The notes: generated by a model not told the origin, from the sequence alone. A stretch of 64,000 nt of DNA from Candidatus Bathyarchaeia archaeon (GCA_049515895.1 JBEKTQ010000005.1:32001-96000), one strand, 5' to 3'. Shown: positions 10,628 to 57,024, numbered from the stretch's first letter. Numbers and translations: made by a program.

Positions 10628-10628
10628 T

Positions 10629-40420: not shown

Positions 40421-40505
40421 ATTAATTATTGTGATACAATCTAGTAATATGTTTTTCGGAATATGAACAATTAGTAGTCACTAGACCTTATGTGTAAATC
40501 AATTT

Positions 40506-41168: not shown

Positions 41169-41295
41169 GCATGTTCCCTACTGTATCGTTGATACAACGC
41201 TTTGACTTTTGCGGTGTGAAAGCGTTAGCAGATTTGATTTAGTGGACAAAACCAAAATAACCCGCAGGCTTAATCTTGTTATAAAGTGTATCAAT

Positions 41296-43083
41296 ATGGT
41301 CAGCGCAAAAGAGGAAATCACTTGGGATCTCACAGAACTTTTTCCCAGTCTCGTGGACCCATCTATTGAAAAATCAATTAATGAATCAAAAGTTTGGGCC
41401 GATAACTTTGAGGAATTATACCGCGGAAAAATAGCATCTCTTAACCCAACCAGTCTATTGAAATGTATCCAAGAACTGGAGGCGTTCGATGTCAAGCTGG
41501 GCGACGTCTCACTTTTTGCAGGCCTGTCTTTTTCGGCTAATATGACATTGCCAGAGTCGCAGGCGCTTTATGACAGGGTTAGTAAGCTTGAGGCTCAGCT
41601 TGGTAAGCAGTTGGCTTTCTTTTCGCTGGAGTTGGGCACATCAGTGAAAGCTAAGCCAGAGTTAATTGCGGAGCCTGTTTTGGCTACGTATCGTCACATG
41701 CTTGAGCGAGTACAGCGTCGCGTCGCTCATCAGCTGAGCGAGGTGGAGGAGCAGCTCATTATCGAGAAGGACCAGTTCGGAGTGCAGGCTTGGGAGGAGT
41801 TGCAGAGCAAATGGCTCAACACCCGCATGTTCGACGTTATGGTCCTTGGAGAGAAGAAGACTCTAAGTTACGGTGAAGCCAACGGATTATTTCCTCATCC
41901 CGATAGAGCAACACGGGAATCCGCGAACCGTGCAATTTACGGTTTGCTTGGCAGAGACGGCGAAATCTTCGCTTCAGCCTTGCGTAGCATTTGCAACGAC
42001 TGGGTCACGGTTTCCAAGCGCAGGAAATACGCCTCACCAATGGATTCGAGCCTTTTGAACAATGATACCGAACAAGTAGTAATTGACAACCTGTTGCATG
42101 CAATAGAGGAAAACGCTCGCACATATCGCTATTACCTCAAACTGAAAGCTAACCTCATGGGACTGCCGCAGCTAGGTAACCATGACATTGTTGCACCCCT
42201 ACCAGATTCGCCTGAACAGAAATTCACCTTTGAAGAAGCCAAAAACCTAGTCATCGAAGCATACAGCCACTTTGACCCCCAATACTCAACCGCAGTAAAA
42301 GAAATGTTTACCCAAAGGCGAATCGACGGAACACCTAGGTTTGGGAAGCGAAACGGCGCTTTCTGTGCAAGCTGGTACAAGGGCAAATCTGCGTTCATGC
42401 TCCAAAGTTTCAACGGTGCCCTCACCGACGTTTACACGCTAGCACATGAACTGGGACACGCCACCCATGACTACTACATGTCGCGAAGCCAAACCCTCAT
42501 GAACACAAGTGTACCTTCGACTGTAGCTGAAACCGCCTCAATTTTCGGCGAGCTCCTGCTAACCGATCTGCTGCTTAATGAAGCAAAATCCGATGAGCAG
42601 CGTAAAGCGGTTCTTTGCTTGGTTCTGGATGAAGCTGGCATGACAGCGTTCCAAGTTACGGCGCGGGTGTGGTTTGAGCAGGCTCTTTACAATTCAATTC
42701 AGAACAGCGAATACCTCGACTACCCAACCATATGCAAACATTGGAGAGAGGCTCGGGACCGCATCTACGGGAACGCCGTCACGTGGTTCCCCGAGATGGA
42801 GGCGGAGTGGACCATGAAACCGCACTATTACATGGCAAACTACCGCTTTTACAACTATCCCTACGTATATGCTCAAATGTTCGTCTACTCTCTGTACGAG
42901 AGGTACCTGGAGGAAGGCAAGGCATTTGTGCCCAAACTTGTGGAGGCGTTGTCGGCGGGCAGCAGTATGTCCTCATTGCAAATCGGCAGAATCGTGGGCC
43001 TTGACGTGTCAGACCCCAGCTTCTGGAGCGGCGGTTTAAGAGTGTTCGAACGCTTCATCGTTGACTTAGAGAAAATCGTCTAA
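41296..43083 (+). CDS. pepF: M3 family oligoendopeptidase F
   Basis: WDLTELF, GKRNGAFC, TLAHELGHA (HExxH), AETASIFGE, FYNYPY. Confidence 0.93.
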   Translation: MVSAKEEITWDLTELFPSLVDPSIEKSINESKVWADNFEELYRGKIASLNPTSLLKCIQELEAFDVKLGDVSLFAGLSFSANMTLPESQALYDRVSKLEAQLGKQLAFFSLELGTSVKAKPELIAEPVLATYRHMLERVQRRVAHQLSEVEEQLIIEKDQFGVQAWEELQSKWLNTRMFDVMVLGEKKTLSYGEANGLFPHPDRATRESANRAIYGLLGRDGEIFASALRSICNDWVTVSKRRKYASPMDSSLLNNDTEQVVIDNLLHAIEENARTYRYYLKLKANLMGLPQLGNHDIVAPLPDSPEQKFTFEEAKNLVIEAYSHFDPQYSTAVKEMFTQRRIDGTPRFGKRNGAFCASWYKGKSAFMLQSFNGALTDVYTLAHELGHATHDYYMSRSQTLMNTSVPSTVAETASIFGELLLTDLLLNEAKSDEQRKAVLCLVLDEAGMTAFQVTARVWFEQALYNSIQNSEYLDYPTICKHWREARDRIYGNAVTWFPEMEAEWTMKPHYYMANYRFYNYPYVYAQMFVYSLYERYLEEGKAFVPKLVEALSAGSSMSSLQIGRIVGLDVSDPSFWSGGLRVFERFIVDLEKIV

Positions 43084-43136
43084 GCAAGCGGCAAATGATT
43101 AATAAGAAAGAGACGGAACATTTTTAGCTGCATTGT

Positions 43137-43260
43137 GCTGCGGTAACCAAGCCAGGTCAAAGGTGAAGGACTCAAGATCTAACATTTGGCCTATATGGGC
43201 TCCAGATGGGAAATCCTTTCCCGCAGGGGTTCGCAGGTTCGAATCCTGCCCGCAGCACCA
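43137..43260 (+). tRNA. tRNA-Leu(CAA) with 36-nt intron at canonical 37/38 position; CCA encoded
   Basis: Acceptor GCTGCGG/CCGCAGC, anticodon stem AAGGA/TCCTT, anticodon CAA at 43173-43175. Intron 43177-43212 forms a bulge-helix-bulge (CTCA/TGGG core, AGA and AAA bulges). Long variable arm; GGTTCGAATCC T-arm. Confidence 0.95.
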
Positions 43261-43502
43261 ATAAGATCTTGCCATTTCTTTGCTTAGAATTCAAATAAGT
43301 TAGTGAATAATTATACATTGGTGAGACCGGTGCATCTTGAAACCATTAAAGGCAGAAAAAATGCGTTCCTTGATGAAATGCTAGACGAACCAATTATAGT
43401 TGGTGTTAATTAATTCACCTACTTCGATGTATGTGTTTTTGGCTTAGAGAATAAAACAAACTTAATTATTTAATTGTGCAGTCTATTAATGAGGTTTAAC
43501 GT

Positions 43503-43712
43503 TTGGCAGAAACAGTCTCTATTCCATTGCCATTACTGAAAGAACTCTATGAGCATTTTGACCGTATCTAAGAAATTTGAGTCACTCTTGAAGAGCTTTC
43601 TGATAAGCAAGGATTAGAAAGAATCGAAAAAGGATTAGAGGAATGTAAGAAAAAAGAATACATTACTGTGGCAAGTCCTGACAAAATAAGAGACGCTCTC
43701 CTGAAGGACTAA
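43503..43712 (+). pseudogene. Antitoxin pseudogene (RelB/Phd-like)
   Basis: MAETVSIPLPLLKELYEHFDRI*EI*VTLEELSDKQGLERIEKGLEECKKKEY..., with two in-frame stops. Lies directly before the toxin. Confidence 0.7.
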
Positions 43713-43716
43713 ATTC

Positions 43717-43970
43717 TTGCCATATAAAATAATCTTCTTGCGCAATTTCACTAAGCAATTCGATAAGCTTCCGAAAACTGGGAAAGAGCAAGTCCTGAAA
43801 GGACTTGAAAAGGCTGCTTCTGACCTTACTCTGGAACAAGGCTGCAAGGAAAGCTAATAGGTTTATGAAGATGGCGCATGGGCAATTACCGAGCAATCTA
43901 TTCAGTGAGTGAGAAAGAAGGCTACTTAGTGTTCGTAGATGTTGGTTTGAGAAAATCTATATATGAATAA
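43717..43970 (+). pseudogene. relE: RelE/ParE family toxin pseudogene
   Basis: MPYKIIFLRNFTKQFDKLPK...ASD / frameshift / YSGTRLQGKLIGL*RWRMGNYRAIYSV...FVDVGLRKSIYE*. Confidence 0.8.
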
Positions 43971-44488
43971 ATGTTCGCAGGTTTGAATTCTGCCCGCAGC
44001 ACTTTTAGCCATATTCTGAGTTTATTTCACGCATATAAGCTAAAAAATAGGCTTAAGTTTCTTTAGGTAAGAAAGTTTTTCCCCAGATGGAACAGCTTAT
44101 CCCAATAAGTAAATAAGATCTCAAACTGAATTATTAACTGAAAAAATTTCCCTGAAATCCACTAACTTTATTTCTCCCCTCTCCTTTACTTTCCTAATGT
44201 TTCTTATGCCTAAGCTTAGCAAGAGGAAACAGATTCAACGTTTGCGGGAAGCTGTAAAAGAAATAGCACTGATAGTTGAACTTTAAGAAGCTCAACTACC
44301 TCTCTCACTTTATATTATTAAAGGGTTTTAAGCGAGCACGTATTTTGAGGCTGATTAAAAACGAATTTCACCTAGAAAAAGTGCCAAGTTTATGCCGAAA
44401 TACATAGAGTTTGTAGACAGATTTTCACATATGAGACCCCACTTTTTAAAACAGACTTTTCACACAATTTCGACAGGCCAGCGCATAT

Positions 44489-45427
44489 TCACGCGACAAT
44501 TGTCGTACCCGCCCTTCCAGCAAGGGCCTCTTCAGCCTTCTCCAGTGAGCTGATTATCACACGTTTTCCTCCAGACTCCAAGAATCTGACCGCACTCTCG
44601 ATTTTTGGACCCATATTTCCGCTAGGAAACTGTCCTGCCTCGAGGAACTTTCTGCATTCCTGCACGGTCATTCTATCGACGGGACGCTGGTTAGGTTTCT
44701 CGTAGTTGAGAAAAACTTTCTCGACATCAGTCAATATCAGCAACACGTCCGCCTCAACGATCTTCGCCAAGACCGCAGCGCAGAGATCCTTGTCTATTAC
44801 CGCTTCAACGCCTTGGGAATCATTGCCCGAAGTCACAGGAATACCGCCTCCTCCTGCTGCAATTACGATAACCCCAAGGTCCATCAACTCTCGAACAATC
44901 TGCCCCTGAATTATTGACAATGGAATCGGCGAGGGCACCGTTCTTCTATACCCACGTTCGCCCTCATTGATGAGATGCCACCCTTTCTCTTTCTTAAGCC
45001 GAGCCGCCTCACTTGCATTGCAAAATGACCCTATTGGCTTTGTTGGGTTTTTGAAAGCTGGATCGTTCACGTCGATGACCGTCTCCGTCAGTATCGTCGC
45101 GACCTGCAAGTCGAGCCCAATTCTTCTGAGTTCGTTCCGTAATGATTGCTGAATCATGTAGCCAATCATGCCTTGAGACTCGGCGACGCAGACATCGAGG
45201 GGCATGTAGGGAAGCTTGTCTTTGGCCAGTTCGCCTCTCAGAAGTATGTCACCGACTTGCGGACCATTGCCATGAGTGATTATTATCTTGTGCCCATGCC
45301 GTATTATGCACGCCAGGTGTTTGCAGGCTCTACGGACGTTATCGAACTGTTCTTCTGCTGTTCCTTCATTCTCTCGTGCCAAGATGGCGTTTCCTCCCAG
45401 CGCGACAAGTATCCTCAATGGTGCCAC
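44489..45427 (-). CDS. arcC: Carbamate kinase
   Basis: VALGGNA, THGNGPQVG, SQGMIGY, PTKPIG, RRTVPSP, GGGGIPV, EAVIDKD, GNMGPK. Confidence 0.95.
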   Translation of the reverse strand: MAPLRILVALGGNAILARENEGTAEEQFDNVRRACKHLACIIRHGHKIIITHGNGPQVGDILLRGELAKDKLPYMPLDVCVAESQGMIGYMIQQSLRNELRRIGLDLQVATILTETVIDVNDPAFKNPTKPIGSFCNASEAARLKKEKGWHLINEGERGYRRTVPSPIPLSIIQGQIVRELMDLGVIVIAAGGGGIPVTSGNDSQGVEAVIDKDLCAAVLAKIVEADVLLILTDVEKVFLNYEKPNQRPVDRMTVQECRKFLEAGQFPSGNMGPKIESAVRFLESGGKRVIISSLEKAEEALAGRAGTTIVA

Positions 45428-45429
45428 TG

Positions 45430-45618
45430 TTACAACCCCAATTTCGCAAGTAGCTTCAACATCTCGACGTCTCCTCCCGCTGGAGGCTTCCAGTCAACGT
45501 GAACCACATCTACGCCCTGAGAACGGAGATCATCGGCGAAGGTTGAAATCCCGATGTTTACGACCTTAAGCTTTTCTGTTAGAATGGTCTTATCCTTATT
45601 GCTCTTCTTTTCATCCAT
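45430..45618 (-). CDS. FdrA C-terminal-like small protein (62 aa)
   Basis: VVNIGISTFADDLRSQGVDVVHVDWKPPAGGD matches the segment that is normally the FdrA C-terminus or the DUF1116 protein N-terminus. Confidence 0.75.
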   Translation of the reverse strand: MDEKKSNKDKTILTEKLKVVNIGISTFADDLRSQGVDVVHVDWKPPAGGDVEMLKLLAKLGL

Positions 45619-45619
45619 A

Positions 45620-47197
45620 CTATTTAGACCTCCCAAAAGTTGCCTCTTCGATCTTTTCCCCGCATGCAATGAGGGCTGAGACCCACGTGGCTTGAGCATT
45701 GCTCGGCATAATTAGAACTCCAGCGTCTAACAGGGCTTTCTCTTGACTCGCGAGTCCCTGAAAGTCGCCTTCTGTGCCGACTACGGAAGCTACAATAGGA
45801 AGATGCCGGCCAGCCTCCTTTGCAAGAGCCTTGGCCTTTTGGATTGCAGGAACAAGCTGCCCTGCAGGATCGTTGTTTGAACCGTATCCCAATTCTACGT
45901 CGATCAGGATGACCGCCGTCTCTGGATCCCTGGCTTCTTGGAGAATCCTCAGATTCCTCAAGCTAAAATCAATCATGGGGTGTGCCCTTCCTTCGACGAA
46001 TTCTTCAGCCCCCATGTCTATACATGTATGTTTCTTGCTGGGGGCGCCGCCAAGTATCTTGTTCTCGGGTTTGATGGGAGCGTTTGAAAATACCTCTCCG
46101 AGCAAAGGCTGAAGAACTATCTCCGACTCATAGCATAAGGTTCCTCCGGAGAAAAGACCACGAACATATTGTTGATCCCTAGCAAGTTTCCTATGATTCT
46201 CCAGAGCGACGGAGATCGCCCCGTTGGAAATAATAGCGGAAGCCACCTCAGACTTCCCTCCAGCGAGTTCGCACGCAACCTTCGCGGCATCATCAAGAGT
46301 ATTCGCGGGCCTAAGCTTGCCGAGCAAGTGTGGACTAAGGTCTACTCCCAAAAAGTTTACCACGACAGGTTTTCTGCTTTGTCTCGCTACTTCAAGAACC
46401 TTTTCCATTGTGCTAGGGGCGGGCGGCTTCGAAATGAGCACTATCACTTTTGTGTGCTCGTCCTCCTCCAGCAACTTGAAACCCTGAATCATAGTGATCC
46501 CCCCAACCTCTTCGGAAAGGTCGCTTCCGCCGGTACCGATGGCCTGAGAAATACCAAGACCAGCTTTGTGAATTAGCGTTAATACCTCTTGAAGACCAGT
46601 CCCCGACGCTGAGACCAAACCAATCGTACCTTCTCGGATCGTATTTCCGAAACCGAGCACCTTATGATTAATTATCGATGTTCCACAATCAGGCCCCATC
46701 ATAAGTAGTCTCTTCTCCTTCGCTACCTTCTTCAGCTCCACTTCCTCTTCCCGCGAAACGTTACTGCTAAAGAGGAAAACATTCAGACCTCTATCCAACG
46801 CCCGCATTGCTTCCCTCTTCGCAAACTGACCCGGGACTGAAATGACCGCTAAATTTGCGTCTGGAACAAGCTCCAACGCTTCTTCCAGTGATGTAGGCGG
46901 TGCCTTTTCGCCAGCTGGTTTTTCGCCTTGAGTAAGCAACCTTTCCGTCTCTGTTAAGGCTGCCTCCAATGAAGAGGCGTCATTGGTCTCGATGGCCACT
47001 ATCATGTCACTAGTGGTCGCCGGAGCATTGGCTGCGTCCGCAAATCCAGCCTCTGAGAGAACTCGGCGGTTAAGCTCCGTCGCCATCACAACCGCAGCCT
47101 GAGTTACGCCCGGCAGTTTCGAAATATCGTTCGAAATTTTCATTAGACTAATGGAGTCCCTATAGGTCGATTTTCTTACAATCAGTCTTGTGTTCAT
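45620..47197 (-). CDS. fdrA: Acyl-CoA synthetase-like FdrA (AllF/YahF family)
   Basis: YRDSISLM, ANLAVISVPG, MMGPDCGT, ASGTGLQE, GTGGSDL, LISKPP, GLFSGGTLCYE, GRAHPMID. Confidence 0.92.
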   Translation of the reverse strand: MNTRLIVRKSTYRDSISLMKISNDISKLPGVTQAAVVMATELNRRVLSEAGFADAANAPATTSDMIVAIETNDASSLEAALTETERLLTQGEKPAGEKAPPTSLEEALELVPDANLAVISVPGQFAKREAMRALDRGLNVFLFSSNVSREEEVELKKVAKEKRLLMMGPDCGTSIINHKVLGFGNTIREGTIGLVSASGTGLQEVLTLIHKAGLGISQAIGTGGSDLSEEVGGITMIQGFKLLEEDEHTKVIVLISKPPAPSTMEKVLEVARQSRKPVVVNFLGVDLSPHLLGKLRPANTLDDAAKVACELAGGKSEVASAIISNGAISVALENHRKLARDQQYVRGLFSGGTLCYESEIVLQPLLGEVFSNAPIKPENKILGGAPSKKHTCIDMGAEEFVEGRAHPMIDFSLRNLRILQEARDPETAVILIDVELGYGSNNDPAGQLVPAIQKAKALAKEAGRHLPIVASVVGTEGDFQGLASQEKALLDAGVLIMPSNAQATWVSALIACGEKIEEATFGRSK

Positions 47198-48194
47198 TCG
47201 AATTCCCTCTGACCAAACTCGACTTTTTGCTCAAACAGAGCGTTGTTCCAATAACAATTCCCAAAACTGTGTCTGTGCCCGAAGATTCTCCTATCTCCAG
47301 CATACGTCTAGTCTCACGCTCAACCGATTTACCGCTTTCCGTTAACAATGCAGTGCAAAGCCGCATTGCCTGCTCGTTTCCTCTCCCTAAAGCTGCTTGC
47401 TTAAGGTACTCTTCGCTAAGAAGCGTCGTCCTGCCGTGAGCCTCTTCTGCCACCAGCTTCGCTGCAAGCCGGCTAGCGTGCTGCGCGCATCCGCTGTTCT
47501 TTTCATAAAGTACACAGAGAAGAACTAGACCCGCCAGCATATCGTCAGAAGAAGGGGTAAGTCCGGGACCAAGACCTATGAGTTCGCTGATAGACTCTTT
47601 TAACGGGTTCCTTTTCTCTGAACAGAAGGCTTGTTCAAACCGAACGATGCGACGAAGCGCCGAGGAGGCAAAAATGTTAAGATTTTTGACTGGAGTTTTT
47701 GCTGTTTCCTGAGGTATTATAGCAAGTAACTGCCCCAGGCCCGCCATGTTTCCAAAGAGTAGAGCAGTCTTCCTCATAACTTCTTTGTTCGCTTCAATTT
47801 CATCATTGCTCAGAATCGGTACCGTGAACGTTTGCTTAAATGAATAAATTCGAGCTGAGCCCAACAAGATTAGGATGTGATCGCTGAGTTCCAAAGCAAC
47901 CCCATGTACTTTGACCTTGTCTCCAACGCTTACTCCAAGACCAGACATCCGTGTCTGTCCAACTGGCATTCGCAATATTACGTTTAGAGGACCTTTTTGA
48001 ACAGACCCTGGAACCAAACTAACAAGGGCTCCCGAAAGAAGTATGTTGATTGCCTTATCAAACACTCCATGAACAGTCCCCTCTTCTCCATTCTTGAGAC
48101 GCGCGTAAGCTACGTTTCCGATGGAAGAAGCCTCTAGAATGGAGCAACTGAACTGGGAGGAAAACAAGTTCTGCGAACTTGCACTTTGTTTCAA
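47160..48194 (-). CDS. DUF2877 protein (YlbF/AllH/YahE family)
   Basis: LIGLGPGLTPSSDDMLAG, TTLLS and IGESSGTD motifs. Confidence 0.88.
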   Translation of the reverse strand: MKQSASSQNLFSSQFSCSILEASSIGNVAYARLKNGEEGTVHGVFDKAINILLSGALVSLVPGSVQKGPLNVILRMPVGQTRMSGLGVSVGDKVKVHGVALELSDHILILLGSARIYSFKQTFTVPILSNDEIEANKEVMRKTALLFGNMAGLGQLLAIIPQETAKTPVKNLNIFASSALRRIVRFEQAFCSEKRNPLKESISELIGLGPGLTPSSDDMLAGLVLLCVLYEKNSGCAQHASRLAAKLVAEEAHGRTTLLSEEYLKQAALGRGNEQAMRLCTALLTESGKSVERETRRMLEIGESSGTDTVLGIVIGTTLCLSKKSSLVRGNSNEHKTDCKKIDL

Positions 48195-49747
48195 CTCGCC
48201 GCCACGCCTCCCATCATCAACCCGATTTCCTCCAGCTTTGCAGTGGCAGCTGGCATGATTCCCATGATCTTTCCGCCATAGAAGACCGCTATTCTGTCGC
48301 TCAACGTCATGATTTCATTCAAATCTCCTGAAATCAAAAGGATTCCCACACCGAATCCTCTCCGCTCTTTGAGTTTTTCTTTGATGAACTCTGCTGCTCC
48401 AACGTCCAAGCCGGATGTCGGTTGAGCTGCAATCAGAACCTTGGGGTTTCTAGACAGAACTTTTGCAAGAATCGCTTTTAACATGTTTCCTCCTGATAAA
48501 GTTCTGGCGGAGGCTTCTACGCTGGGGCAGGTAATTGAGTACTCTTTCACCAAGCGCTCGGCATTCAGGTGGACTTGTTCATTGTCTACCATGTATTTCT
48601 TTTCGAATCTCGGATCGTTCCTAATCTCTAGAACGAGATTTTCTGCTATAGACATGTCAAGAAGGAGGCCGGAGCCCATTCTGTCCTCCGGTATGTGACC
48701 GACGCCATGCTCTATCATGTTCCTAGGTGAAGCATTAGTAAGGTCCAACCCTTGCACGAGCACTTTGCCGTTGGTGACCTTTCTCATTCCCGTTAAGATG
48801 TCCGCCAGCTCTGTTTGTCCATTCCCGGACACACCGGCTATTCCAAGAATTTCACCTGCTCTCAACGAGAGTGATATGTCGTTGAGGCCGAGTACTCCTT
48901 TGTCGTTTCGGGCAGAGACATGCTGGATTTCTAAAACTACCTTTTCAGACGGTTCCTCACCAGGCAGTTCCTTCTTGCCCGAAACCTCCTGGCCAACCAT
49001 CTTTTTAGCTAGCTCATTCGGATTCGTATCTTTGGTTAAGAGCCGGGCTACGACCTCGCCATGACGTAGCACTGTAACCCTGTCGCTTACAGCTATCACC
49101 TCGGGAAGTTTGTGTGTAATTATGACAACGGTTCTTCTTTCTGCTGCCATTGAACGCATGAAATTGAACAAACCCTTGACTTCATCGTCGGTCAGGATCG
49201 ATGTCGGCTCATCAAGAATCAGAATATGAGCCTCCCGATAGAGCGCCTTTATTATCTCAACTCTCTGCCTCTCACCAACAGAAAGTTGCTCTGCCTTCGC
49301 GCTCGGATTAACTAAGAGATCATAGTTTTTAGCTAGCTCGTTTATCCTCTTGATAACGGTATCGAGGTCCAGAATAGGCCAAGTTTTAGATTTAAGCCCT
49401 AGCCCCACGTTTTCCGCAACAGTCAGGGTCGGAACAAGTTCGAAGTGTTGGTGCACCATCGCTATTTTAAGGTCGATAGCATCTTTAGGAGACTTGATGC
49501 TAACTCGATTTCCATTTACAAAGATCTCCCCAGAGTCAGGCTTGTAGAGACCGTAGAGGATATTCATCAGGGTCGTCTTGCCAGCTCCATTCTCGCCGAG
49601 AAGCGCGTGAACCTCTCCCTCATAAAGGGAAAGATCTATTGAATTATTGGCAATGACGCTTGGAAACCTCTTTGAGATTCCTTTCATTTCCACAATGGGA
49701 GGATGGATAGATGAAATCGAAACCGCTGTGCTCAAACTTAATGTCAT
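48191..49747 (-). CDS. ABC transporter ATP-binding protein (nucleoside/CUT2 type, two NBDs)
   Basis: GENGAGKT, LSVGERQRVEI, DEPT; second domain GVSGNGQ, LSGGN, QPTSGLD. Confidence 0.93.
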   Translation of the reverse strand: MTLSLSTAVSISSIHPPIVEMKGISKRFPSVIANNSIDLSLYEGEVHALLGENGAGKTTLMNILYGLYKPDSGEIFVNGNRVSIKSPKDAIDLKIAMVHQHFELVPTLTVAENVGLGLKSKTWPILDLDTVIKRINELAKNYDLLVNPSAKAEQLSVGERQRVEIIKALYREAHILILDEPTSILTDDEVKGLFNFMRSMAAERRTVVIITHKLPEVIAVSDRVTVLRHGEVVARLLTKDTNPNELAKKMVGQEVSGKKELPGEEPSEKVVLEIQHVSARNDKGVLGLNDISLSLRAGEILGIAGVSGNGQTELADILTGMRKVTNGKVLVQGLDLTNASPRNMIEHGVGHIPEDRMGSGLLLDMSIAENLVLEIRNDPRFEKKYMVDNEQVHLNAERLVKEYSITCPSVEASARTLSGGNMLKAILAKVLSRNPKVLIAAQPTSGLDVGAAEFIKEKLKERRGFGVGILLISGDLNEIMTLSDRIAVFYGGKIMGIMPAATAKLEEIGLMMGGVAAS

Positions 49748-49801
49748 CCTTTAATGAAGCTTGAAAAAAAAGGTTAAAAAAATAGATTGGAGGAATACAA
49801 G

Positions 49802-50869
49802 TTATGGGGTGTTCGGTGGGTTCTGAGTATAAGTGAAGGGGACTTGTACTGTGCCATTTTCTATTCCCGTGGCAGTATCTGTCAGCAACGTTTTCACTGA
49901 TGTCGGTATTACACTGTCGTAGGCGTGGAAGGGTGCGAGGGAACCCAAGTTCATGTCGATTACTTTGCCGCCGATTTCGCTCCATGTATTACTCTGGAAG
50001 TGCTGAATCACATCCTGCATAAAGGCAGTCGTGTTCAATAGAACACTGGTCATCATATTGTTCGGTGCTAGTGAGACTTGGTCTTCGACTGTACCAACAA
50101 TCGATATGTTTGCTGCAGTGGCTGCTGAAATCACTCCTCTCCCCGTTGCGTCGGCTATCGGCACGATAATATCAACATGGTCGGACTGGATCATCGTCTG
50201 CGCGTCTGTGTAGCCAATGGTTGGGTCAGACCATGTTCCTGGAACTGTGAGGTAAACTTTCGCCGATGGATTCACGCTGTGCACACCTGCCTGGAACCCA
50301 TAGAACTCGAAGGACAGAGCTGCAAACCATTGGCCAATTATGACTCCGACTGCATTGGTTTTTGTCATCTTCCCTGCAAGGACTCCGGCTAGATAGTAAC
50401 CAGTGGCTTGGTATCCTGCTCCAACTGCAACGACGTTCGACGTGATATTATCGCCGTCATAAGTCGGGCTCATAACGAATTTGGTGTTAGGAAATTGCGC
50501 GGCGATCGGTTCTGTGGCCCCAATAAACTGGTTTCCATCTGTCCAGACCATGTTGTAGCCCTCTTGAGCATAGGTAGTTATTACTCTATTCTGGTCAGAA
50601 AAAGCGACATCCCGCGAGATTGAAACATTCCAACCATAAGTGGATTGGATCCACTGTGCAACGGCGACTCCGTTTGCATTCAAACCTAAGTCTGTTTCAT
50701 CGCCACCTAGGACGAGGGCGAGTTTGTATTTCGATGTTGGGGTGGGTGAAGAGGTTGGATGGACGGCGAATATTACTGCGACAATTGCAACTACAATTAT
50801 GACTATTAACACTATAGCTATAACCATCCTTGAGATAGCCTTCCTATTCTTTATGAACATAAAATTCAC
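49802..50869 (-). CDS. BMP family ABC substrate-binding protein (nucleoside/purine type)
   Basis: N-terminal anchor RKA|ISRMVIAIVLIVII (class III-like), GYYLAGVLAGKMTKTN, GTWSDP, SIVGTVEDQ. Confidence 0.88.
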   Translation of the reverse strand: MNFMFIKNRKAISRMVIAIVLIVIIVVAIVAVIFAVHPTSSPTPTSKYKLALVLGGDETDLGLNANGVAVAQWIQSTYGWNVSISRDVAFSDQNRVITTYAQEGYNMVWTDGNQFIGATEPIAAQFPNTKFVMSPTYDGDNITSNVVAVGAGYQATGYYLAGVLAGKMTKTNAVGVIIGQWFAALSFEFYGFQAGVHSVNPSAKVYLTVPGTWSDPTIGYTDAQTMIQSDHVDIIVPIADATGRGVISAATAANISIVGTVEDQVSLAPNNMMTSVLLNTTAFMQDVIQHFQSNTWSEIGGKVIDMNLGSLAPFHAYDSVIPTSVKTLLTDTATGIENGTVQVPFTYTQNPPNTP

Positions 50870-50894
50870 TCAATCAAGTATTCGCTGCTAGTGC

Positions 50895-50908
50895 TATTTA
50901 TAATTTTT
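50895..50908 (-). promoter_or_regulatory. Internal BRE/TATA promoter for the BMP gene
   Basis: Minus strand reads AAAAATTATAAATA about 25 nt upstream of the start. Confidence 0.55.
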
Positions 50909-50965
50909 CAGGACGCTTTGTATCCAAGAGTAGAAGACCAAAAAGGTGTTGACTTGATCATCCCA

Positions 50966-51922
50966 CTACTTGCGCTTATAAGGAATAGTGAGGGACGATG
51001 GGGATTTGGTTCCCCGGTGGAAGATTATTATGAAGATGATTGCGAAGATGTATGGTATCGCCAGAAGGAAATACCCTGCCCCCGGTCCAAGACTGGAGAA
51101 AACGCCTGAGCCTATAAAGGTCGCGGCTATTGAGTACCCGAGCCCAAACAGCCAGCTGCCTGCTATTGCCTTGTATGGGCTCCATCCTGCAAAGATCACA
51201 ACGACTATGGCAATCCACCCTCTTCCGGCTACTAGAGTGTCTCCTGCGTTGTAGAGGCCAAGATAACCAAGAACAAGTGATGCCCCCGCGACGCCGGCAA
51301 GGACAGCACCCAGGATTACACACAAGTACCTTACCCGATTGACGTTGATTCCAGCGGCATCAGATGCTTCAGGATTTTCGCCTACGGCCCTGATCTCTAA
51401 GCCCCATGTCGTTTTGTATAGGATAAGTCCAAATACTATGGCGACGGCGAATGAAGCGTACACGAGGATGTTCTGGCTGAATAAGATGGGTCCCACCGCT
51501 GGTAGGTCACTCAGAAATGGAATGTGTACTGGTGGTAGAGGGCGGACCACAGGGAACGAAGTCGCAGTCAGCGTTCGGTAGACGAAATCGGCAATACCGA
51601 TTGATAGGGAGTAAATCAGAAGCCCGGCGATGAGCTGGTTAATTCCTATCTTGACAGCTACAAATGAGTGCAGGACGCCCATGCTAGCGCCAGCAACCAT
51701 CGCGGCCAATAGCCCATAGAGATAGGAGCCGGTTGCAAAAGTGACCCACAGGGAGACGAGGGCCGACAAGCCCATGATGCCCTCTATTCCCATGTTTAGC
51801 ACACCTGATCTCTCAGCGTACACCTCTCCGATTGAAGCAAACAATATAGGCATCGTTAAAGTCAGACTGGAAGCCAGAATCGATATTACAAGATCTCCTA
51901 AAGCTAACATAATCCCATTCAT
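50966..51922 (-). CDS. ABC transporter permease (nucleoside type)
   Basis: ERSGVLNMGIEG, RAVGENPEASDAAGINV, GRGWIA. Confidence 0.92.
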   Translation of the reverse strand: MNGIMLALGDLVISILASSLTLTMPILFASIGEVYAERSGVLNMGIEGIMGLSALVSLWVTFATGSYLYGLLAAMVAGASMGVLHSFVAVKIGINQLIAGLLIYSLSIGIADFVYRTLTATSFPVVRPLPPVHIPFLSDLPAVGPILFSQNILVYASFAVAIVFGLILYKTTWGLEIRAVGENPEASDAAGINVNRVRYLCVILGAVLAGVAGASLVLGYLGLYNAGDTLVAGRGWIAIVVVIFAGWSPYKAIAGSWLFGLGYSIAATFIGSGVFSSLGPGAGYFLLAIPYIFAIIFIIIFHRGTKSPSSLTIPYKRK

Positions 51923-52992
51923 CGCCTCCTATTCTCTCTGTCGCCTAGCCACCTTTGAACAATTAGAACAGATAGCACTATTATAGCCTGTAATACGTAA
52001 ATCAGCTCGATTGGTATCGCTGCAGCGCTACTCTGCAGACTCTCGCCGCCGATTGAAAGTGCAGAGTAAAATACAGAAGCAATTAGTGAGCCCAATGGAT
52101 GAAACGCGCCTAATGCCGCCACAGCGATTCCTTGATAGCCGTACCCAGGGGAGAAGTTCTGCGCGAGCAGGTGCTCGGCACCGTTTACCACGACCATCCC
52201 GGCCAGCCCCGCCATACCCCCGCTAATTAGACCTACCGCGAGTATGCTCCTAGAGATACTGACTCCTCCACTTTTTGCTGCGCGGGGATTCACTCCAGTC
52301 GCCCTGATTTCATATCCTAAAACGGTCTTGTAGAGAACGAAGAAGACCCCAATTGCTACTATAACAGCGATTAGGATTCCAAGGTTAAATCTCGTGCCAG
52401 GGATAAGATCAGGGAGCCAAGTTGACCGCGGCAAGATTGGGGTCTGAAGGTTTCCCGAGTTTGGATCTTTGATTGGTCCCGCGGTAAGCCAGTTAACCAC
52501 GTCCAAAGCGACGAAGTTCATGACAAGCGTTGGGAATATTTCGTTTACCTGGAGCTTGATTCTCATTAAGAGCGGTAGCGCCAGCCAGAGTATTCCTCCA
52601 CCCGCTGCAGCGATTAGCACTAGTGGAATCGCAGCTACGCTGGGAAAACTTCCAAGTTTGGAACCTACTAAATATGCGAACAAGGCACCTATATAGATCT
52701 GGCCTTCGACACCGATGTTGTAGAATCTGGCCTTGAATGCCACAAGAAATGCAAGTGCAGCCAGCAGTAACGGCGCCATCAGCACGAAGGTCTCCGAAGC
52801 GAGGAACGTTGAACCAAATGATCCCGATACGAGTCCTGCGATACTTGTGATCGGGTTGTACCCGAAAGTCAAAAGGATGACAGAAAACACAGCAAGCGAG
52901 GCGGCTATTCCAATCAGGTAGGAAAGATACCTCCTCAAGTATGCAGCTACTCTAAGCAAGTAGGAAAGATACTTCCCTAGAGACAACTGCAT
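51919..52992 (-). CDS. ABC transporter permease (nucleoside type)
   Basis: FYNIGVEGQ, GYEIRATGVNPRAA, GYGYQGIAVA. Confidence 0.92.
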   Translation of the reverse strand: MQLSLGKYLSYLLRVAAYLRRYLSYLIGIAASLAVFSVILLTFGYNPITSIAGLVSGSFGSTFLASETFVLMAPLLLAALAFLVAFKARFYNIGVEGQIYIGALFAYLVGSKLGSFPSVAAIPLVLIAAAGGGILWLALPLLMRIKLQVNEIFPTLVMNFVALDVVNWLTAGPIKDPNSGNLQTPILPRSTWLPDLIPGTRFNLGILIAVIVAIGVFFVLYKTVLGYEIRATGVNPRAAKSGGVSISRSILAVGLISGGMAGLAGMVVVNGAEHLLAQNFSPGYGYQGIAVAALGAFHPLGSLIASVFYSALSIGGESLQSSAAAIPIELIYVLQAIIVLSVLIVQRWLGDRENRRR

Positions 52993-53019
52993 TGTGGCAC
53001 GTCCAGTAAATCTGACTGG

Positions 53020-54279
53020 TTAAGTGTATTCAGCCGCAAAAGATGCCACTGCTTTTTTGAAGGCTTCCATAGGGGCATTTGCGATGCCTGTACCTATGAT
53101 GCCGTGGCCGCCATCCTTGTGCGCGATTCCTGTATCTATTCTAGGCACGGTGTTCATCTCCACCACCTTGCGGATATCAATACCGACCGGGACCCCCACA
53201 AAATCCATGTACGGAATCCGAAAGAGGGGGTCTTCCATTATCGAAACCTTCCGCATAATCCTTGTGTGCTGCACCGCCTCTTGGAGTGCACCTCCGAACA
53301 ATCTTGCCTGGGATGGAGACGCCGAGAGCGCCGTTCCGCCGAAACCCCTCGATTCTGAGATAGCGCTGTCACCTATGTCCGGAGCTCCGTCGGCGGCTGT
53401 GAATCCTGGAAATAGGAAACCCTTAATCTCTCCTGCAGGACCGGTAAACCATCTGTCGCCTAAGGCGCTAACCTTGATGCCAAACTCAACCCCGTTTCTT
53501 GACATTGCAGTCACTACAGTGCTGTATTTTATCCCCTTGGCTGCGTCCATCATCACTTTGCAACCGCCCATCATAAGGTTGCCACAGAACCATCGACCTC
53601 CGTTTCCCATGAAATAGTCCCCGACCGCACCGAGTGTCTCCTTCGGAAAATCTGTCCTTACGATATGAGGAAGAATCCAATTCATGAACACTCCTCGAGT
53701 AGCATCAAACGACCCGTGGAGTTCGTCGCCCATTTGCAGTCCCTTGGCCAAAAGCTCCTTCACATTGAATCCGCCAGCATGCTTGATGGTGGCAGCCAAT
53801 ACAGGGGCAAGAGTTTCTCTCACAAACTTAACTTCCTTAATTCCCCTTTCATAAAGATCCCCGAACGAGGTCATGTCGGTCTGCATCCAGTTGGTGGAAG
53901 TATTACCGTGAACCTTATCATCGAAGACAAAGACAGGACTTGAGGCAGAAGTGACACCGCACATACCGCTCACGTTACCATAATTATGGTTAGACTCCAC
54001 ACGTACTTCCTGTCTCCTGACCAACTTTTCAGCTTGTTCAGCAGTGTCAGCAAGTCCCTCTGATCTTATCGCATTAATCACCGCTATCTTCTGGACCTTA
54101 ATCATCTTTTCCCATGATATCGGTGGTCCGGCATGAGTGATCAAATTGTCATTGAAGCCGGGAATGGCCCTTCGCGCTGGCTTCATATCCACCAGCGTAG
54201 GCTCAGCAGAAATAATATTATCTACAGCCTTTCTGTTCGCCTCATCAATCTCAGACGCAATCATCTTCAATTCCTTCAT
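53020..54279 (-). CDS. DUF1116 protein (YlbE/AllG/YahG family)
   Basis: IDEANRKAV, HAGPPI, LQMGDELH, MSRNGVEFGI, PDIGDSAISE, IDTGIAHK. Confidence 0.88.
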   Translation of the reverse strand: MKELKMIASEIDEANRKAVDNIISAEPTLVDMKPARRAIPGFNDNLITHAGPPISWEKMIKVQKIAVINAIRSEGLADTAEQAEKLVRRQEVRVESNHNYGNVSGMCGVTSASSPVFVFDDKVHGNTSTNWMQTDMTSFGDLYERGIKEVKFVRETLAPVLAATIKHAGGFNVKELLAKGLQMGDELHGSFDATRGVFMNWILPHIVRTDFPKETLGAVGDYFMGNGGRWFCGNLMMGGCKVMMDAAKGIKYSTVVTAMSRNGVEFGIKVSALGDRWFTGPAGEIKGFLFPGFTAADGAPDIGDSAISESRGFGGTALSASPSQARLFGGALQEAVQHTRIMRKVSIMEDPLFRIPYMDFVGVPVGIDIRKVVEMNTVPRIDTGIAHKDGGHGIIGTGIANAPMEAFKKAVASFAAEYT

Positions 54280-54300
54280 TCGAAATCTATGCGTAGAAGC

Positions 54301-54312
54301 TGTATAAATAAC
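54301..54312 (-). promoter_or_regulatory. TATA box of the DUF1116 operon
   Basis: Minus strand TTATTTATACA about 24 nt upstream of the ATG at 54279, suggesting a leaderless transcript. Confidence 0.55.
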
Positions 54313-54727
54313 GCACGCTGTTACTAAAGCAAGATGTGAATTTCACAAAACTTGGCAAGATATCAGTTGCAAGACCATTTAAATGCTAACATGGCCTGCT
54401 AACACAGCTATGCTGAGAAAATGCTGGCATAGATTCCCGTAGTTGCTCTGTTTATTTTGTTTCTTATGAATACAACTTTGCACTTGATTAAGTCCAATAG
54501 CTGAGAGTTTCTCCAGAAACTCAAAGATGCCAATTACGCGCAAATCTAGAGAATATAGGCTGGTGGGGAAATGCTGAACGACAAGTGTAGCTTCGAGATC
54601 CTAATCTCCTTGTTCATTTAATTCTACGCAACAATTTTTCATTGCTGACAAATACCTTGAAATTATGAAATAAAATCGTGACAATCCTGCGTTGCGTCCT
54701 TCTCCAATTTAACCTCAAAAAACCAAA

Positions 54728-55192
54728 CTAGAACTGTTGCAAAATATCCCTCTTCTCCAAAAGGTTACTACAGTAATGGCATTTCATGACCAGAGGGGCT
54801 TCATTCACAACATAGAATTTTGTGCACAGAGGCTCATTACTGTTGGTGATGCACATAGGATTGATACACTTAATGATGTTCTCAATGACATGAGGTAAGG
54901 TTACTTCCACTTTTTCCACAACCGCATAATTCCGGATTATATTAATGGTAGCATGAGGCGCAATCAAGGCAATCTTGTTGACTTCTTGGGAATCAAGTGA
55001 ACGCCCTTCAATCTTTATTATGTCTTTTACCTTTAAGCGCTTGCTCGGAACATTGATTGCGATTGACATAATCCCTTTCTCCCGTCCAGTAATCCCCAAC
55101 ATCTTGATAACTTCCAAAGCGTAGCCTCCTCTAATATGATCGATGACAGTTCCATCTTTGATCTTCGAAACCCGCACTTCGTAGTCGCTCAT
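54728..55192 (-). CDS. pyrI: Aspartate carbamoyltransferase regulatory subunit
   Basis: VSKIKDGTVIDHI, KDIIKIE, IALIAPHATINII, CINPMC...CHYC zinc site. ATG at 55192. Confidence 0.93.
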   Translation of the reverse strand: MSDYEVRVSKIKDGTVIDHIRGGYALEVIKMLGITGREKGIMSIAINVPSKRLKVKDIIKIEGRSLDSQEVNKIALIAPHATINIIRNYAVVEKVEVTLPHVIENIIKCINPMCITNSNEPLCTKFYVVNEAPLVMKCHYCSNLLEKRDILQQF

Positions 55193-55572
55193 TCTAAAAC
55201 ATCTCCTTCGTTGATTCTTGACATTGCCTGTCTTCAGGTCCAATTCTGATATACTGAGTGTGACGAGGGTATTTAGACCCATCGTGTATATCTGTTGTGA
55301 AAAATTCACCAGTAAATTAACACAAAAGTGTACTTATAAAAACAATATTCAGCCATAGTAGTAAATGAGAACAGCGTAAATTCATGCGTTTGAGGTTTGA
55401 ACGCGGTTTAAACGACGGTGAGTAGCTAGCCGTAGCCTTTTTTCCTTATTCTGAGCTTTGAGACAAATAGGCTAACAGCAGGTTTTCAAATACTCTTGCG
55501 CCTAAGACTAATATGCTATGATAGACTTACGTTTCAGTTAGAGACAAAACAATTTTCGCGAGTGAAAATAAA

Positions 55573-56138
55573 ATGAAAATGGACCTTGGAGCAAAAAACT
55601 GTTTGTATCCGATGCCAACCACATTGGTGGAGCCTTGGTGAATGGAAACCCGAATTATACCACCATAGCTCATGTTGGCATAATGGATTTTGAATCGGTT
55701 TCGTTAGGAATGAACAAGCTTCACTATACCAACATAGGCATAAAAGCAAACAAGACCTTCAGCATCAACATTCCCTCAACAAAAATGGTTAAAGAAACCG
55801 ACTATTGCGGTTTAGTATCAGGAAAAGACAAAAACAAGGCGGGCATATTCAAGACGTTTTATGGAAAACTCAAAAGTGCTCCAATGATCGAACAATGCAG
55901 CATCAACATGGAATGCGAACTCACAAAAACTGTCGATTTTCCAAATCACGACATATTCATAGGCAAAATAGTAGCCACACACTGCGACGATACTGTTCTT
56001 ACCGACGGAGCAGTAGATTTTACAAAAGTGCAACCAATCTTGTTTGTTATGAATGACCGAAGTTATTGGACTCTTGGCAAAAGAATCGCCAAAGCCTGGG
56101 ACATAGGAAAGGAATTCGCAAAAGAGATATCTTGCTAA
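55573..56138 (+). pseudogene. Flavin reductase (DIM6/NTAB) family protein with a frameshift near the 5' end
   Basis: MKMDLGAKNCLYPMPTTLV (from 55573) joins GALVNGNPNY...SAPMIEQC..NMEC...HDIFIGKI only via a 1-nt frameshift at about 55628. Confidence 0.8.
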
Positions 56139-56282
56139 CACAAACAAAAGCTCAATTTGAGCAGATTATTTAACGAAACATCGTCGGCCAAACCGGAATA
56201 TAAAGGGCAAAACATTCTCTGTCAATTTTAGCTCTAAAAAAATGAAATGTGAATTTAATAGTCAGGCATTCTTGCTCTTTCT

Positions 56283-56702
56283 CTACTTCCATTCCCAGAT
56301 AGCAACATCGAATTCCATCCAGGAAGGATCACCTTCTAAGGTGACCAAGGCAACTGCAGTGTTCATCCAAGCCAGCTTAGGAGACATAGACATGAAACTC
56401 CAGACTCCAACGCTCTTGCTCTTGCCCATTTCGACTTTGCCGACACCAGAACCCTTAACGACTGCCATGTCGCCGCTCATGAAATTAAGCATTCCTGTTC
56501 CCATGCTTTCGCCAACTCCGCTAGGTGCCATCATAGTTTTTCCCGTGAAAATGATAGAACCATCCCATCCTTTGGCTTTTCCCATGCCCATAAGCTGCGC
56601 CATCCAAGTAGCCTCAATGGTGACACCGCCCGCGTCTGCGCCCTTAATTGCCATCATCGTACTTTTTGCTTTACCTTCCCACAGTTTTTCGCCAATCGCC
56701 AT
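56283..56702 (-). CDS. Conserved-looking hypothetical beta-rich protein
   Basis: 139 aa, Gly/Met rich, ends in WEWK. GGAGGTG RBS. Confidence 0.8.
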   Translation of the reverse strand: MAIGEKLWEGKAKSTMMAIKGADAGGVTIEATWMAQLMGMGKAKGWDGSIIFTGKTMMAPSGVGESMGTGMLNFMSGDMAVVKGSGVGKVEMGKSKSVGVWSFMSMSPKLAWMNTAVALVTLEGDPSWMEFDVAIWEWK

Positions 56703-57024
56703 TTTACATTCACCTCCAAAAAAAATTCAGCAAAATACTAGAAAACTCGTATCCATTTATCGCTATGTGGCAGTCGTGCAACAATCACAACGGCTTAAAT
56801 TGTCTATTCTCAGAAAGGGCCACAAAGAGCCTCGCACCGTTCGGGTAATCCCTGTCCGATTTTCCTCGTCTCCAAATTTATGTGCGAACGCCGTTTCAAA
56901 TAGTCAGGCACTAGTTCGTCGAAATACCCCAAATTGTTGTTGTTAGTTGCAGCCGCGAAATTTCTTGTAGAGTCCAGCCAAAAAGAGGCTAAACCTACTA
57001 GCTTTCGCAACATACGAGTCTATT

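Follow-up and report, generated by a model that had tools for sequence, protein, structure and literature searches.

The 64,000-nucleotide stretch of DNA examined here, called the window throughout, comes from Candidatus Bathyarchaeia archaeon (GCA_049515895.1, JBEKTQ010000005.1:32001-96000) and contains, between positions 44489 and 54279, a cassette in which the genes of an AllFGH-like carbamoyltransferase and of a carbamate kinase (CK) are wrapped around those of an ABC importer with a BMP-family substrate-binding protein. The listing of the open reading frames (ORFs) places nine of them there, all on the minus strand and in the order AllG, permease, permease, BMP, ATPase, AllH, FdrA, tail and CK. 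A first-pass annotation made from the sequence itself had announced nine co-oriented, mostly abutting genes in this order and had assigned the enzyme genes to the FdrA, DUF1116 and DUF2877 families and to that of the carbamate kinases: the ORFs and their Pfam and NCBIfam matches bear out the arrangement, and the three subunit families and the kinase score above their curated cut-offs. The archaeal source that it had proposed is upheld by the Rpb1- and Rpb2-type RNA polymerase subunits and the XPB with DUF790, which the window encodes together with pilus genes, and by the 120 best RpoB homologues, which are 84-93% identical and, where named, belong mostly to Bathyarchaeota/Bathyarchaeia. Near-identical DNA is present in peat and wetland metagenomes, and the host is a peat Bathyarchaeon whose genome has an estimated completeness of 100%.

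In the direction of its coding strand, the cassette begins with the AllG/DUF1116 subunit (53020-54279, 419 amino acids, aa), which matches PF06545 with 196 bits (cut-off 27) and the PDB entry 3clq with an E value of 1.8e-83. It is followed by ABC permease 2 (51919-52992, 357 aa) and ABC permease 1 (50966-51922, 318 aa), each of which matches PF02653 (BPD_transp_2) with 121 bits, the start of permease 1 overlapping the stop of permease 2 by 4 nucleotides (nt), then by the BMP-family substrate-binding protein (49802-50869, 355 aa; PF02608, Bmp, 153 bits) and by an ABC ATPase with two nucleotide-binding domains (48191-49747, 518 aa; PF00005, ABC_tran, in two stretches, 184 bits). The best-scoring NCBIfam models for the transporter are those of a 'putative B6 ABC transporter' (NF047927 to NF047930), and all four scores fall below the equivalog cut-offs: 86 bits for a cut-off of 400, 163 for 465 (NF047928, permease 1), 187 for 400 (the model named 'putative B6 ABC permease 2', permease 2) and 467 for 670 (NF047930, the double ATPase). 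The AllH/DUF2877 subunit comes next (47160-48194, 344 aa; PF11392 over residues 205-316, 89 bits, cut-off 25), and precedes the FdrA/AllF-like subunit (45620-47197, 525 aa), which reaches 471 bits with NF004760/PRK06091 (cut-off 433) and carries the Pfam matches CoA_binding and Ligase_CoA. A free-standing tail protein of 62 aa (45430-45618), corresponding to positions 494-554 of the NCBIfam FdrA model, separates this subunit from the CK (44489-45427, 312 aa; TIGR00746, 397 bits, cut-off 358; AA_kinase in Pfam). The AllFGH-type subunits are thus co-encoded with the kinase, whose gene begins 2 nt after that of the tail, and the successive spacings from 5' to 3' along the cassette are 27, -4, 96, 54, -4, -38, 1 and 2 nt. 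A TTTATA box on the minus strand (54303-54308), which precedes the start codon of AllG by about 26 nt, is a candidate archaeal promoter from which a leaderless operon transcript could start.

The arrangement is not an assembly artefact, since in an independent peat metagenome, obtained in another study, the region 41000-58000 is covered evenly in each of its 30 bins and with zero listed differences, the contigs spanning both borders of the cassette as well as the junction between FdrA and the tail. It also lies far beyond chance, because the identical gene order recurs in seven loci of metagenome-assembled genomes (MAGs) from distant archaea, designated L007, L008, L009, L010, L013, L014 and L018. 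These belong to a comparison set of 80 loci, those that most resemble the AllG locus of the window, many of which are cut by contig ends, so that all the co-occurrence counts given below for this set are minima.

The enzyme subunits compare as follows with the two sets of Escherichia coli: AllG has 36% identity to YlbE and 38% to YahG, FdrA has 39% (38.7%) to AllF and 44.5% to YahF, AllH shares 33% with YlbF along 132 aa and 25% with YahE, and the CK has 43% identity to both E. coli kinases. According to PMC11326118, the AllFGH complex of E. coli (FdrA-YlbE-YlbF) was shown biochemically to interconvert oxalurate plus phosphate and carbamoyl phosphate plus oxamate, and its operon includes the catabolic carbamate kinase AllK. 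The maximum-likelihood tree of AllG comprises 82 rows, of which 79 come from the 80 loci, two are the E. coli proteins and one is the window; the AllG of L014 and that of L018, which are split by frameshifts, were left out, as was the second, partial copy of L017. The tree places the window in an archaeal clade of 11 rows (L007-L013 and L015-L017 being the others), supported by an SH-aLRT of 100, whose stem measures 1.28 changes per column; both E. coli proteins, the two loci labelled as ammonia-oxidizing archaea (AOA) and all Nitrospira fall outside. The FdrA tree recovers the same archaeal clade (12 of 68 rows, SH-aLRT 97) on a stem of 0.11, and in the CK tree the kinase of the window groups with those of L014, L018 and L009 (SH-aLRT 99). 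The archaeal-clade AllG proteins keep 88 family-conserved positions and display 16 clade-specific switches together with small insertions and deletions. As regards the likeness to AllFGH and to its Yah paralogues that had first been proposed, the maximum-likelihood trees set the archaeal AllG and FdrA apart from both, but the approximately unbiased (AU) test rejects neither a sistership of YahG to the archaeal AllG clade (delta lnL 3.9, p 0.41) nor that of YlbE (delta lnL 20.9, p 0.14), long branches being involved. What these comparisons firmly establish is a distinct, fast-evolved archaeal AllG lineage. In a Bathyarchaeota MAG (L012, 2456-11245), two AllG paralogues are present in one locus, one of the general type after FdrA and the tail and one of the archaeal clade before the permeases, which hints that the divergent AllG may have arisen by duplication. 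FdrA is related to the alpha subunit of succinyl-CoA synthetase. A phosphohistidine chemistry similar to that of this synthetase was considered for FdrA and rejected: hhalign aligns it with no more than residues 52-240 of SucD, a stretch that ends before the loop, and the motif GHAGA is absent from the FdrA of the window, from AllF and from YahF. A phospho-enzyme mechanism is not indicated, FdrA being devoid of this loop.

The tail gene deserves separate consideration. Its longest frame (45430-45699) would encode 89 aa and has no Pfam match; the FdrA stop codon TAG lies at 45622-45620 and, one base later and in another frame, an ATG is found at 45618, from which the gene most likely encodes 62 aa rather than 89. 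The protein is homologous to residues 507-554 of E. coli AllF and to residues 3-50 of YahG, and a stop or a frame change separates FdrA from the tail in 71 of the 72 junctions examined. Tail matches number 75 in the 80 loci, 53 being fused to AllG (the YahG architecture), 20 free-standing and two of another kind, one of which is that of L018, an assembly with several frameshifts. In the archaeal-clade loci, all 11 tail copies, distributed over 10 of 12 loci, are free-standing; of the other two loci, L011 ends at a contig border before the tail and L018 has a tail that reads on into the CK. A conserved core is common to 15 free-standing copies. Taken together, the comparisons describe what appears to be a module fused to one or the other of its neighbours depending on the lineage, which argues that the tail is probably a fourth part of the carbamoyltransferase; the archaeal-clade AllG would have lost it on moving to the other side of the transporter.

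The second half of the cassette is the importer. Both permeases are present in all 12 archaeal-clade loci as against 12 of the 68 other loci, and the transporter genes are interleaved with the enzyme genes in each of these 12, including the loci where the order has been shuffled, namely L011 and L012 in Bathyarchaeia, L015 and L016 in Promethearchaeota, and L017 in a Desulfurococcaceae MAG. Through all the rearrangements AllG remains directly ahead of the permease pair. This interleaving, which survives rearrangement, argues for a functional coupling of import and enzyme rather than for chance adjacency. In the wider family, the recruitment of BMP transporters appears to have taken place more than once, those of Nitrospira being 22-37% identical to that of the window and located after the enzyme genes without interleaving.

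The binding protein of the cassette, which is the sole strong Bmp match in the genome, possesses by its sequence an N-terminal membrane anchor followed by a Ser/Thr/Pro linker, and its best PDB matches are Lbp 7x0r (7e-38), BmpA 9q1u (1e-31), AtzT 6pi5 and BmpD 6shu. The nucleoside-binding BMPs share conserved pocket residues, among which Asp98, Asp225 and Lys242 in the BmpA numbering contact the ribose, as given in PMC13325309. The pocket was mapped with HMMER alignments to the BmpA chain 9q1u, the chain index being the number used in that paper plus 6, a correspondence that was checked by hand at five residues; the alignments are of low identity and are anchored on a G-x-x-x-D-Q motif. In the protein of the window, Asp98 has no counterpart, Asp225 is replaced by Val261 and Lys242 by Leu278; among the other pocket positions, the two residues of the aromatic sandwich, Phe176 and Phe27, correspond to Trp213, which keeps the aromatic character, and to Leu63, and Asp19 corresponds to Gly55. 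Val261, Trp213 and Gly55 are invariant in the 10 clade members out of 10, and the position of Phe27 is a Phe in five of the 10. A MAFFT alignment of the 18 BMPs found beside AllG loci contains neither an Asp at the position equivalent to 225 nor a Lys at that equivalent to 242. Because the ribose-contacting residues are missing, a canonical nucleoside ligand is unlikely and a small planar ligand would fit the pocket better, and the import of a nucleoside or purine nucleoside, which had been suggested at first, is not sustained.

These observations bear on the idea that the cassette simply juxtaposes by chance a BMP-type nucleoside or nucleobase importer and an independent carbamoyltransferase set. 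BMP transporters are usually nucleoside importers, bmpA-nupABC is labelled 'ABC-type nucleoside transporter' in PMC12625717, and one aromatic stacking position is kept (Trp213); yet the transporter sits between AllG and AllH and stays interleaved through three rearrangements in three archaeal phyla, the ribose contacts are missing in 18 of the 18 BMPs, and the Pfam and NCBIfam searches reveal no nucleoside-processing gene in the cassette. We regard such a chance neighbourhood as very improbable.

The distribution of the cassette points to an accessory element that has been transferred horizontally between distant archaea. AllG is found in one of 41 relatives, this one being the genome of the window itself, in none of 88 genus mates and in three of 401 sampled members of the order, again including the genome of the window. 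A sample at the level of the class contains an AllG homologue in 31 of 401 genomes, none of which, the genome of the window aside, exceeds 52% identity, with full-length matches at 44% at most, and public collections contain many AllG proteins that are 64-91% identical. The seven syntenic loci share with the window 75-90% identity for AllG, 56-80% for FdrA, 63-77% for the permeases, 57-80% for the ATPase and 32-62% for AllH. In L007, L008, L013 and L018 the cassette proteins are 54-90% identical (AllH 43-62%, and in L007 BMP 41% and CK 56%), while the flanking housekeeping genes of the same four loci are 29-57% identical to the orthologues of the window's genome. It is this high identity of the cassette beside a low identity of its surroundings that argues for horizontal transfer, together with its rarity among relatives, its GC content of 0.490, which lies in the top 0.5% of all 10-kb segments of the genome (0.442 +/- 0.023), and an att-like repeat next to a transfer RNA (tRNA) gene. 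This intron-bearing tRNA gene (43137-43257, plus strand; Rfam RF00005, 44 bits), missed by ARAGORN, has a 39-nt insertion, the intron, in the anticodon region, and its last 30 nt recur with two mismatches (43229-43258 and 43973-44002, plus strand), none being expected by chance. The second copy lies about 0.5 kb beyond the CK end of the cassette, and the pair reads as an integration scar. It brackets about 0.7 kb beside the cassette and not the cassette itself, and a search of the window at up to three mismatches revealed no third copy. Between the repeats, small ORFs (43635-43896) resemble, by eye, decayed toxin-antitoxin genes. The comparison with five genus mates did not delimit the island by synteny: PyrI is present in all five, and the other genes that flank the cassette in the window never occur within about 10 kb of it.

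What the host can do with an imported carbamoyl compound was deduced from its whole genome. AllC, AllD, AllE and AllW have no tblastn homologue in it, and its sole AllB-like gene is a dihydroorotase/PyrC (TIGR00857, 376 bits for a cut-off of 279; the allantoinase model gives 320, below its cut-off of 358), so that the absence of allantoin-pathway genes, first noticed in the window, holds for the genome. Searched over the whole genome, Pfam Amidase (PF01425) has no match; neither a GatA-type amidotransferase subunit nor a urease alpha subunit was found there. As for the biuret hydrolase BiuH, the two isochorismatase-family genes of the genome (C27 and C6) lie outside the cassette, and the one scanned against the BiuH model, C27, scores 49.7 bits for a cut-off of 370. 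The tblastn searches of the genome with the AtzD of L017 and the creatininase of L011 returned no match. The genome searches with PF09663 (AtzD) and PF12942 (archaeal AmoA) were empty, but their controls were equally silent, and these two results alone are uninformative. Since neither an allantoin pathway, an amidase-signature enzyme nor urease was found in the genome, nor BiuH in the isochorismatase gene scanned, the enzyme must act directly on the molecule imported. Our best guess is a urea-chain or acylurea compound, of the biuret, triuret, carboxybiuret or allophanate type, or oxalurate or malonurate, released by other peat organisms. The lack of urease favours leaving groups that are usable or unstable, such as carbamate or those of the allophanate type, or that are harmless, such as oxamate and malonamate.

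The neighbours of the related loci point in the same direction as this guess. The tblastn searches of the 80 loci detect BiuH/TrtA-like isochorismatases in 23, the ring-opening amidohydrolases AtzD/TrzD in 13 loci and, in nine, a conserved unknown protein some 400 aa long, as against one homologue each of AllB, AllC and AllD and none of AllE; a CK is present in 59. Among the flanking ORFs of L007-L018, 68 of the 126 that were unassigned were submitted to Pfam. In L011 and L012 an isochorismatase-family gene stands between the permeases and the CK, that of L011 being nearer to the cysteine hydrolase 3irv, to proteins related to carbamoylsarcosine amidase and to RutB. The isochorismatase of L017 matches the solved biuret hydrolases (BiuH, E 2e-64), and its Desulfurococcaceae MAG contig (1-14251) assembles the transporter, two FdrA-tail-AllG sets, this BiuH homologue, AtzD/TrzD, a 410-aa conserved unknown protein that also accompanies AtzD in eight bacterial loci, and a CK; it may represent a complete archaeal pathway of the cyanuric-acid or barbiturate type without allophanate hydrolase. 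By its gene neighbourhoods, this part of the family is tied to cyanuric-acid, biuret and triuret-type chemistry much more than to allantoin. The suggestion that the substrate may be a carbamoylated compound other than those of the allantoin pathway is consequently favoured, both by the missing allantoin genes and by the BiuH and AtzD neighbours of the related loci.

The same evidence weighs on the simplest alternative, according to which the cassette is a straight orthologue of the E. coli AllFGHK system that imports the oxalurate of its neighbours, acts as an oxamate carbamoyltransferase just as in the anaerobic degradation of allantoin and excretes oxamate. The Pfam names of AllG and AllH and the FdrA score above its NCBIfam cut-off speak for it, as do the reaction proven for E. 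coli (PMC11326118), the fact that oxalurate would be fully usable without urease, and the sistership to YlbE, which the AU test does not reject (p 0.14). Its difficulties are the identities of 36-39% to AllG and AllF, slightly below those to the Yah paralogues, a genome deprived of any allantoin-pathway gene, the strong clade-specific divergence of AllG, and a neighbourhood in which, out of 80 loci, AllC and AllD occur in one each and AllE in none, compared with 23 for BiuH/TrtA-like enzymes and 13 for AtzD. We consider this alternative rather unlikely, although it retains more credit than the other competing explanations.

A different destination of the carbamoyl phosphate has to be weighed because of the gene that precedes the cassette. 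The ORF at 54728-55309 (minus strand) encodes PyrI, the regulatory chain of aspartate carbamoyltransferase, in the only copy of the genome; its true start is probably near 55198, since the homologues of genus mates align from residue 38. It is not beside pyrB, the pyrB-like genes being on contigs C3 and C4. A role for it as a regulatory paralogue specific to the cassette is ruled out, as the genome has no other PyrI and those of genus mates share 61-72% identity with it. The position of the cassette directly downstream of this gene would suit an enzyme that provides carbamoyl phosphate for pyrimidine and arginine synthesis by salvaging carbamoyl groups, sparing the ATP-costly synthetase, with the CK as an overflow valve; the CK is moreover absent from the cassette end in three of the seven syntenic loci, and the cassette of L007 adjoins pyrB-pyrI and a pyrC-like gene, though its PyrI is only 36% identical. 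A missing carbamoyl-phosphate synthetase, however, is ruled out by the presence of carB in the genome, and for this reason the CK, which is the only genome match above the TIGR00746 cut-off, is not needed to make carbamoyl phosphate. With pyrB on other contigs, no pyr neighbours in the other six syntenic loci and a CK adjacent in 59 of the 80 loci of the wider family, such a supply function seems improbable.

The model we propose, to which we attribute a probability of about 0.65, is that of a stand-alone, horizontally acquired import-and-phosphorolysis cassette, which would convert an N-acylurea or ureide into carbamoyl phosphate and then into ammonia and ATP, oxalurate being one candidate only. 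The membrane-anchored extracellular BMP protein, the two permeases and the double ATPase would import a small, probably planar N-carbamoyl compound. A four-part enzyme made of FdrA, the 62-aa tail, the divergent AllG and AllH would use phosphate to split the substrate into carbamoyl phosphate and a leaving amide, and the CK would transfer the phosphate group to ADP, yielding ATP, ammonia and carbon dioxide. The type of reaction is deduced from the homology to E. coli AllFGH (36-44% identity), and its catabolic direction would follow from the importer and from the catabolic neighbours of the related loci; the class of substrate is likewise a deduction, as is the part played by the tail. ABC import itself consumes ATP. 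Since the single ATP gained per carbamoyl group is offset by ATP-driven import, nitrogen is the surer benefit; of the gains in ATP and nitrogen that had first been put forward, the second is retained and the first is qualified. The main gain would be nitrogen, the ATP offsetting the cost of import, and a substrate with several carbamoyl units would pay in energy too. The reverse, synthetic direction, in which the CK would make carbamoyl phosphate and the AllFGH-like enzyme would carbamoylate an imported amide, can invoke the assays made on the E. coli complex, which followed carbamoylation (PMC11326118), but neither tailoring, export nor biosynthetic genes lie alongside, the related loci pair the same modules with hydrolases of degradative pathways, and an importer with its binding protein suits the uptake of a nutrient; of all the explanations considered, we find it the least probable.

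A bolder and more tentative version of the model would see in the cassette a hitherto undescribed urease- and amidase-independent route for nitrogen compounds of the urea-chain or acylurea type, in which a BMP protein that does not bind nucleosides takes up, for instance, biuret, triuret, carboxybiuret or allophanate, and a phosphorylase containing the divergent AllG detaches carbamoyl units as carbamoyl phosphate, replaces allophanate hydrolase and supplies ammonia and ATP to an anaerobic peat archaeon, and which would constitute a mobile trait among Bathyarchaeia, Nitrososphaerales-labelled, Promethearchaeota and Desulfurococcaceae MAGs. If so, there would be a general family of 'acylurea phosphorylase' enzymes, and the cleavage of oxalurate in E. 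coli would be one particular case of their activity.

Several observations weigh against the proposed model. The conversion of biuret into carbamoyl phosphate and urea would strand the urea in a host where no urease was found. Neither the window nor its seven syntenic relatives contain BiuH or AtzD, for which reason the urea-chain idea draws its support from less closely related loci, and the co-occurrence counts in the 80 loci are minima. In L008, L010 and L013 the cassette ends without a CK, which indicates that ATP recovery is not obligatory. The residue mapping of the BMP pocket depends on alignments of 22-30% identity. The only characterised member of the family is E. coli AllFGH, 36-39% identical to the subunits of the window, and the stem of the archaeal AllG clade is about tenfold longer than that of FdrA (1.28 versus 0.11) with 16 switches at otherwise conserved positions, because of which the chemistry of AllG may have changed.

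Elsewhere in the window, the subunit A of RNA polymerase, which is split into A' and A'' in many archaea, is encoded by a single ORF of 1278 aa (30990-34826, minus strand) with Rpb1 domains 1-5, not split in this manner. Two adjacent N6_N4_Mtase DNA methylase ORFs of 317 and 220 aa occupy 39467-41168 (minus strand), the second being possibly a truncated duplicate, since it matches only positions 1-151 of the 221 of the profile. A protein of 1773 aa rich in Ig/PKD domains adjoins T2SSF- and T2SSE-type genes (4792-14362, minus strand), which suggests a giant surface protein encoded within an archaeal locus for a pilus or for secretion. A Peptidase_A4 gene (57025-58107, minus strand), from a family of acid-active glutamic peptidases, is consistent with an acidic peat habitat.

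E. coli AllFGH is so far the only tested member of this enzyme family, and the transporters without a ribose site, the BiuH and AtzD neighbours and the scarcity of allantoin genes suggest that the family handles carbamoyl compounds beyond oxalurate. A self-sufficient cassette provided with its own binding protein offers a handle on the substrate through the ligand screening of one soluble protein. Few nitrogen sources are known for the archaea that abound in peat and soil; the elucidation of the cassette would reveal by what means they scavenge organic nitrogen and would show such a trait to move horizontally between archaeal phyla. The cassette also calls for caution in annotating bmpA-nupABC genes of this kind as nucleoside transporters. 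That allFGHK lies next to bmpA-nupABC in archaea and comammox bacteria is already known from PMC12625717. The literature searched in full text contained no description of the archaeal clade, the interleaved order, the transfer between phyla, the free-standing tail or the missing ribose site, and, among the publications listed for Bathyarchaeia and carbamate kinase, none describes the cluster in its title or in the beginning of its abstract.

Compared with the AllFGH/AllK system of E. coli, the cassette has the same three enzyme families and a carbamate kinase, and its tail is homologous to the C-terminus of AllF. It differs in that this tail, fused to FdrA in AllF, is a separate gene, that the gene order is another, an embedded ABC importer separating AllG from the remaining enzyme genes, and that allantoin genes are lacking both nearby and genome-wide. 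The YahE-YahF-YahG-YahI set is slightly closer (44.5% for YahF and 38% for YahG). In YahG, however, the tail is N-terminal to DUF1116, whereas the DUF1116 protein of the window is devoid of it and sited elsewhere, and the yah locus, which is without an ABC importer, has the amidohydrolase YahJ and YahD instead; being uncharacterised, the yah set gives no clue to the substrate.

The loci of nitrifiers described in PMC12625717 (mSystems 2025) resemble the cassette by the presence on one contig, in archaea included, of the enzyme set, a carbamate kinase and a BMP-type ABC transporter. In AOA and comammox Nitrospira, allFGHK lies together with bmpA-nupABC and with biuH; in a single MAG of the Nitrososphaerales that is not an AOA it lies together with bmpA-nupABC, and this arrangement may correspond to that of the cassette. 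In that paper these genes were read as serving the use of purine- or urea-derived nitrogen, with a nucleoside-type transporter and an oxalurate-specific enzyme. In contrast, the AllG of AOA (L020 and L021) and of Nitrospira belongs to the general clade and is 38-44% identical to that of the window, whose host is a Bathyarchaeon without biuH (one isochorismatase gene having been scanned), gatA-like amidase or urease.

The nucleoside-binding BMP, PnrA and TmpC proteins (PMC13325309, PMC7093131) share with the protein of the window the Pfam Bmp fold and one aromatic platform, kept as Trp213; the three ribose contacts, Asp98, Asp225 and Lys242, are missing in the latter. Lastly, of the cyanuric acid, biuret and triuret pathways (AtzD, BiuH, TrtA, AtzF), the hydrolases AtzD and BiuH/TrtA were not found in the window or in its genome, one of the two isochorismatases having been scanned for BiuH, whereas the related loci pair the AllFGH-like set with AtzD/TrzD and with BiuH/TrtA-like enzymes. 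In such pathways, the AllFGH-like enzyme could conceivably act in place of allophanate hydrolase.

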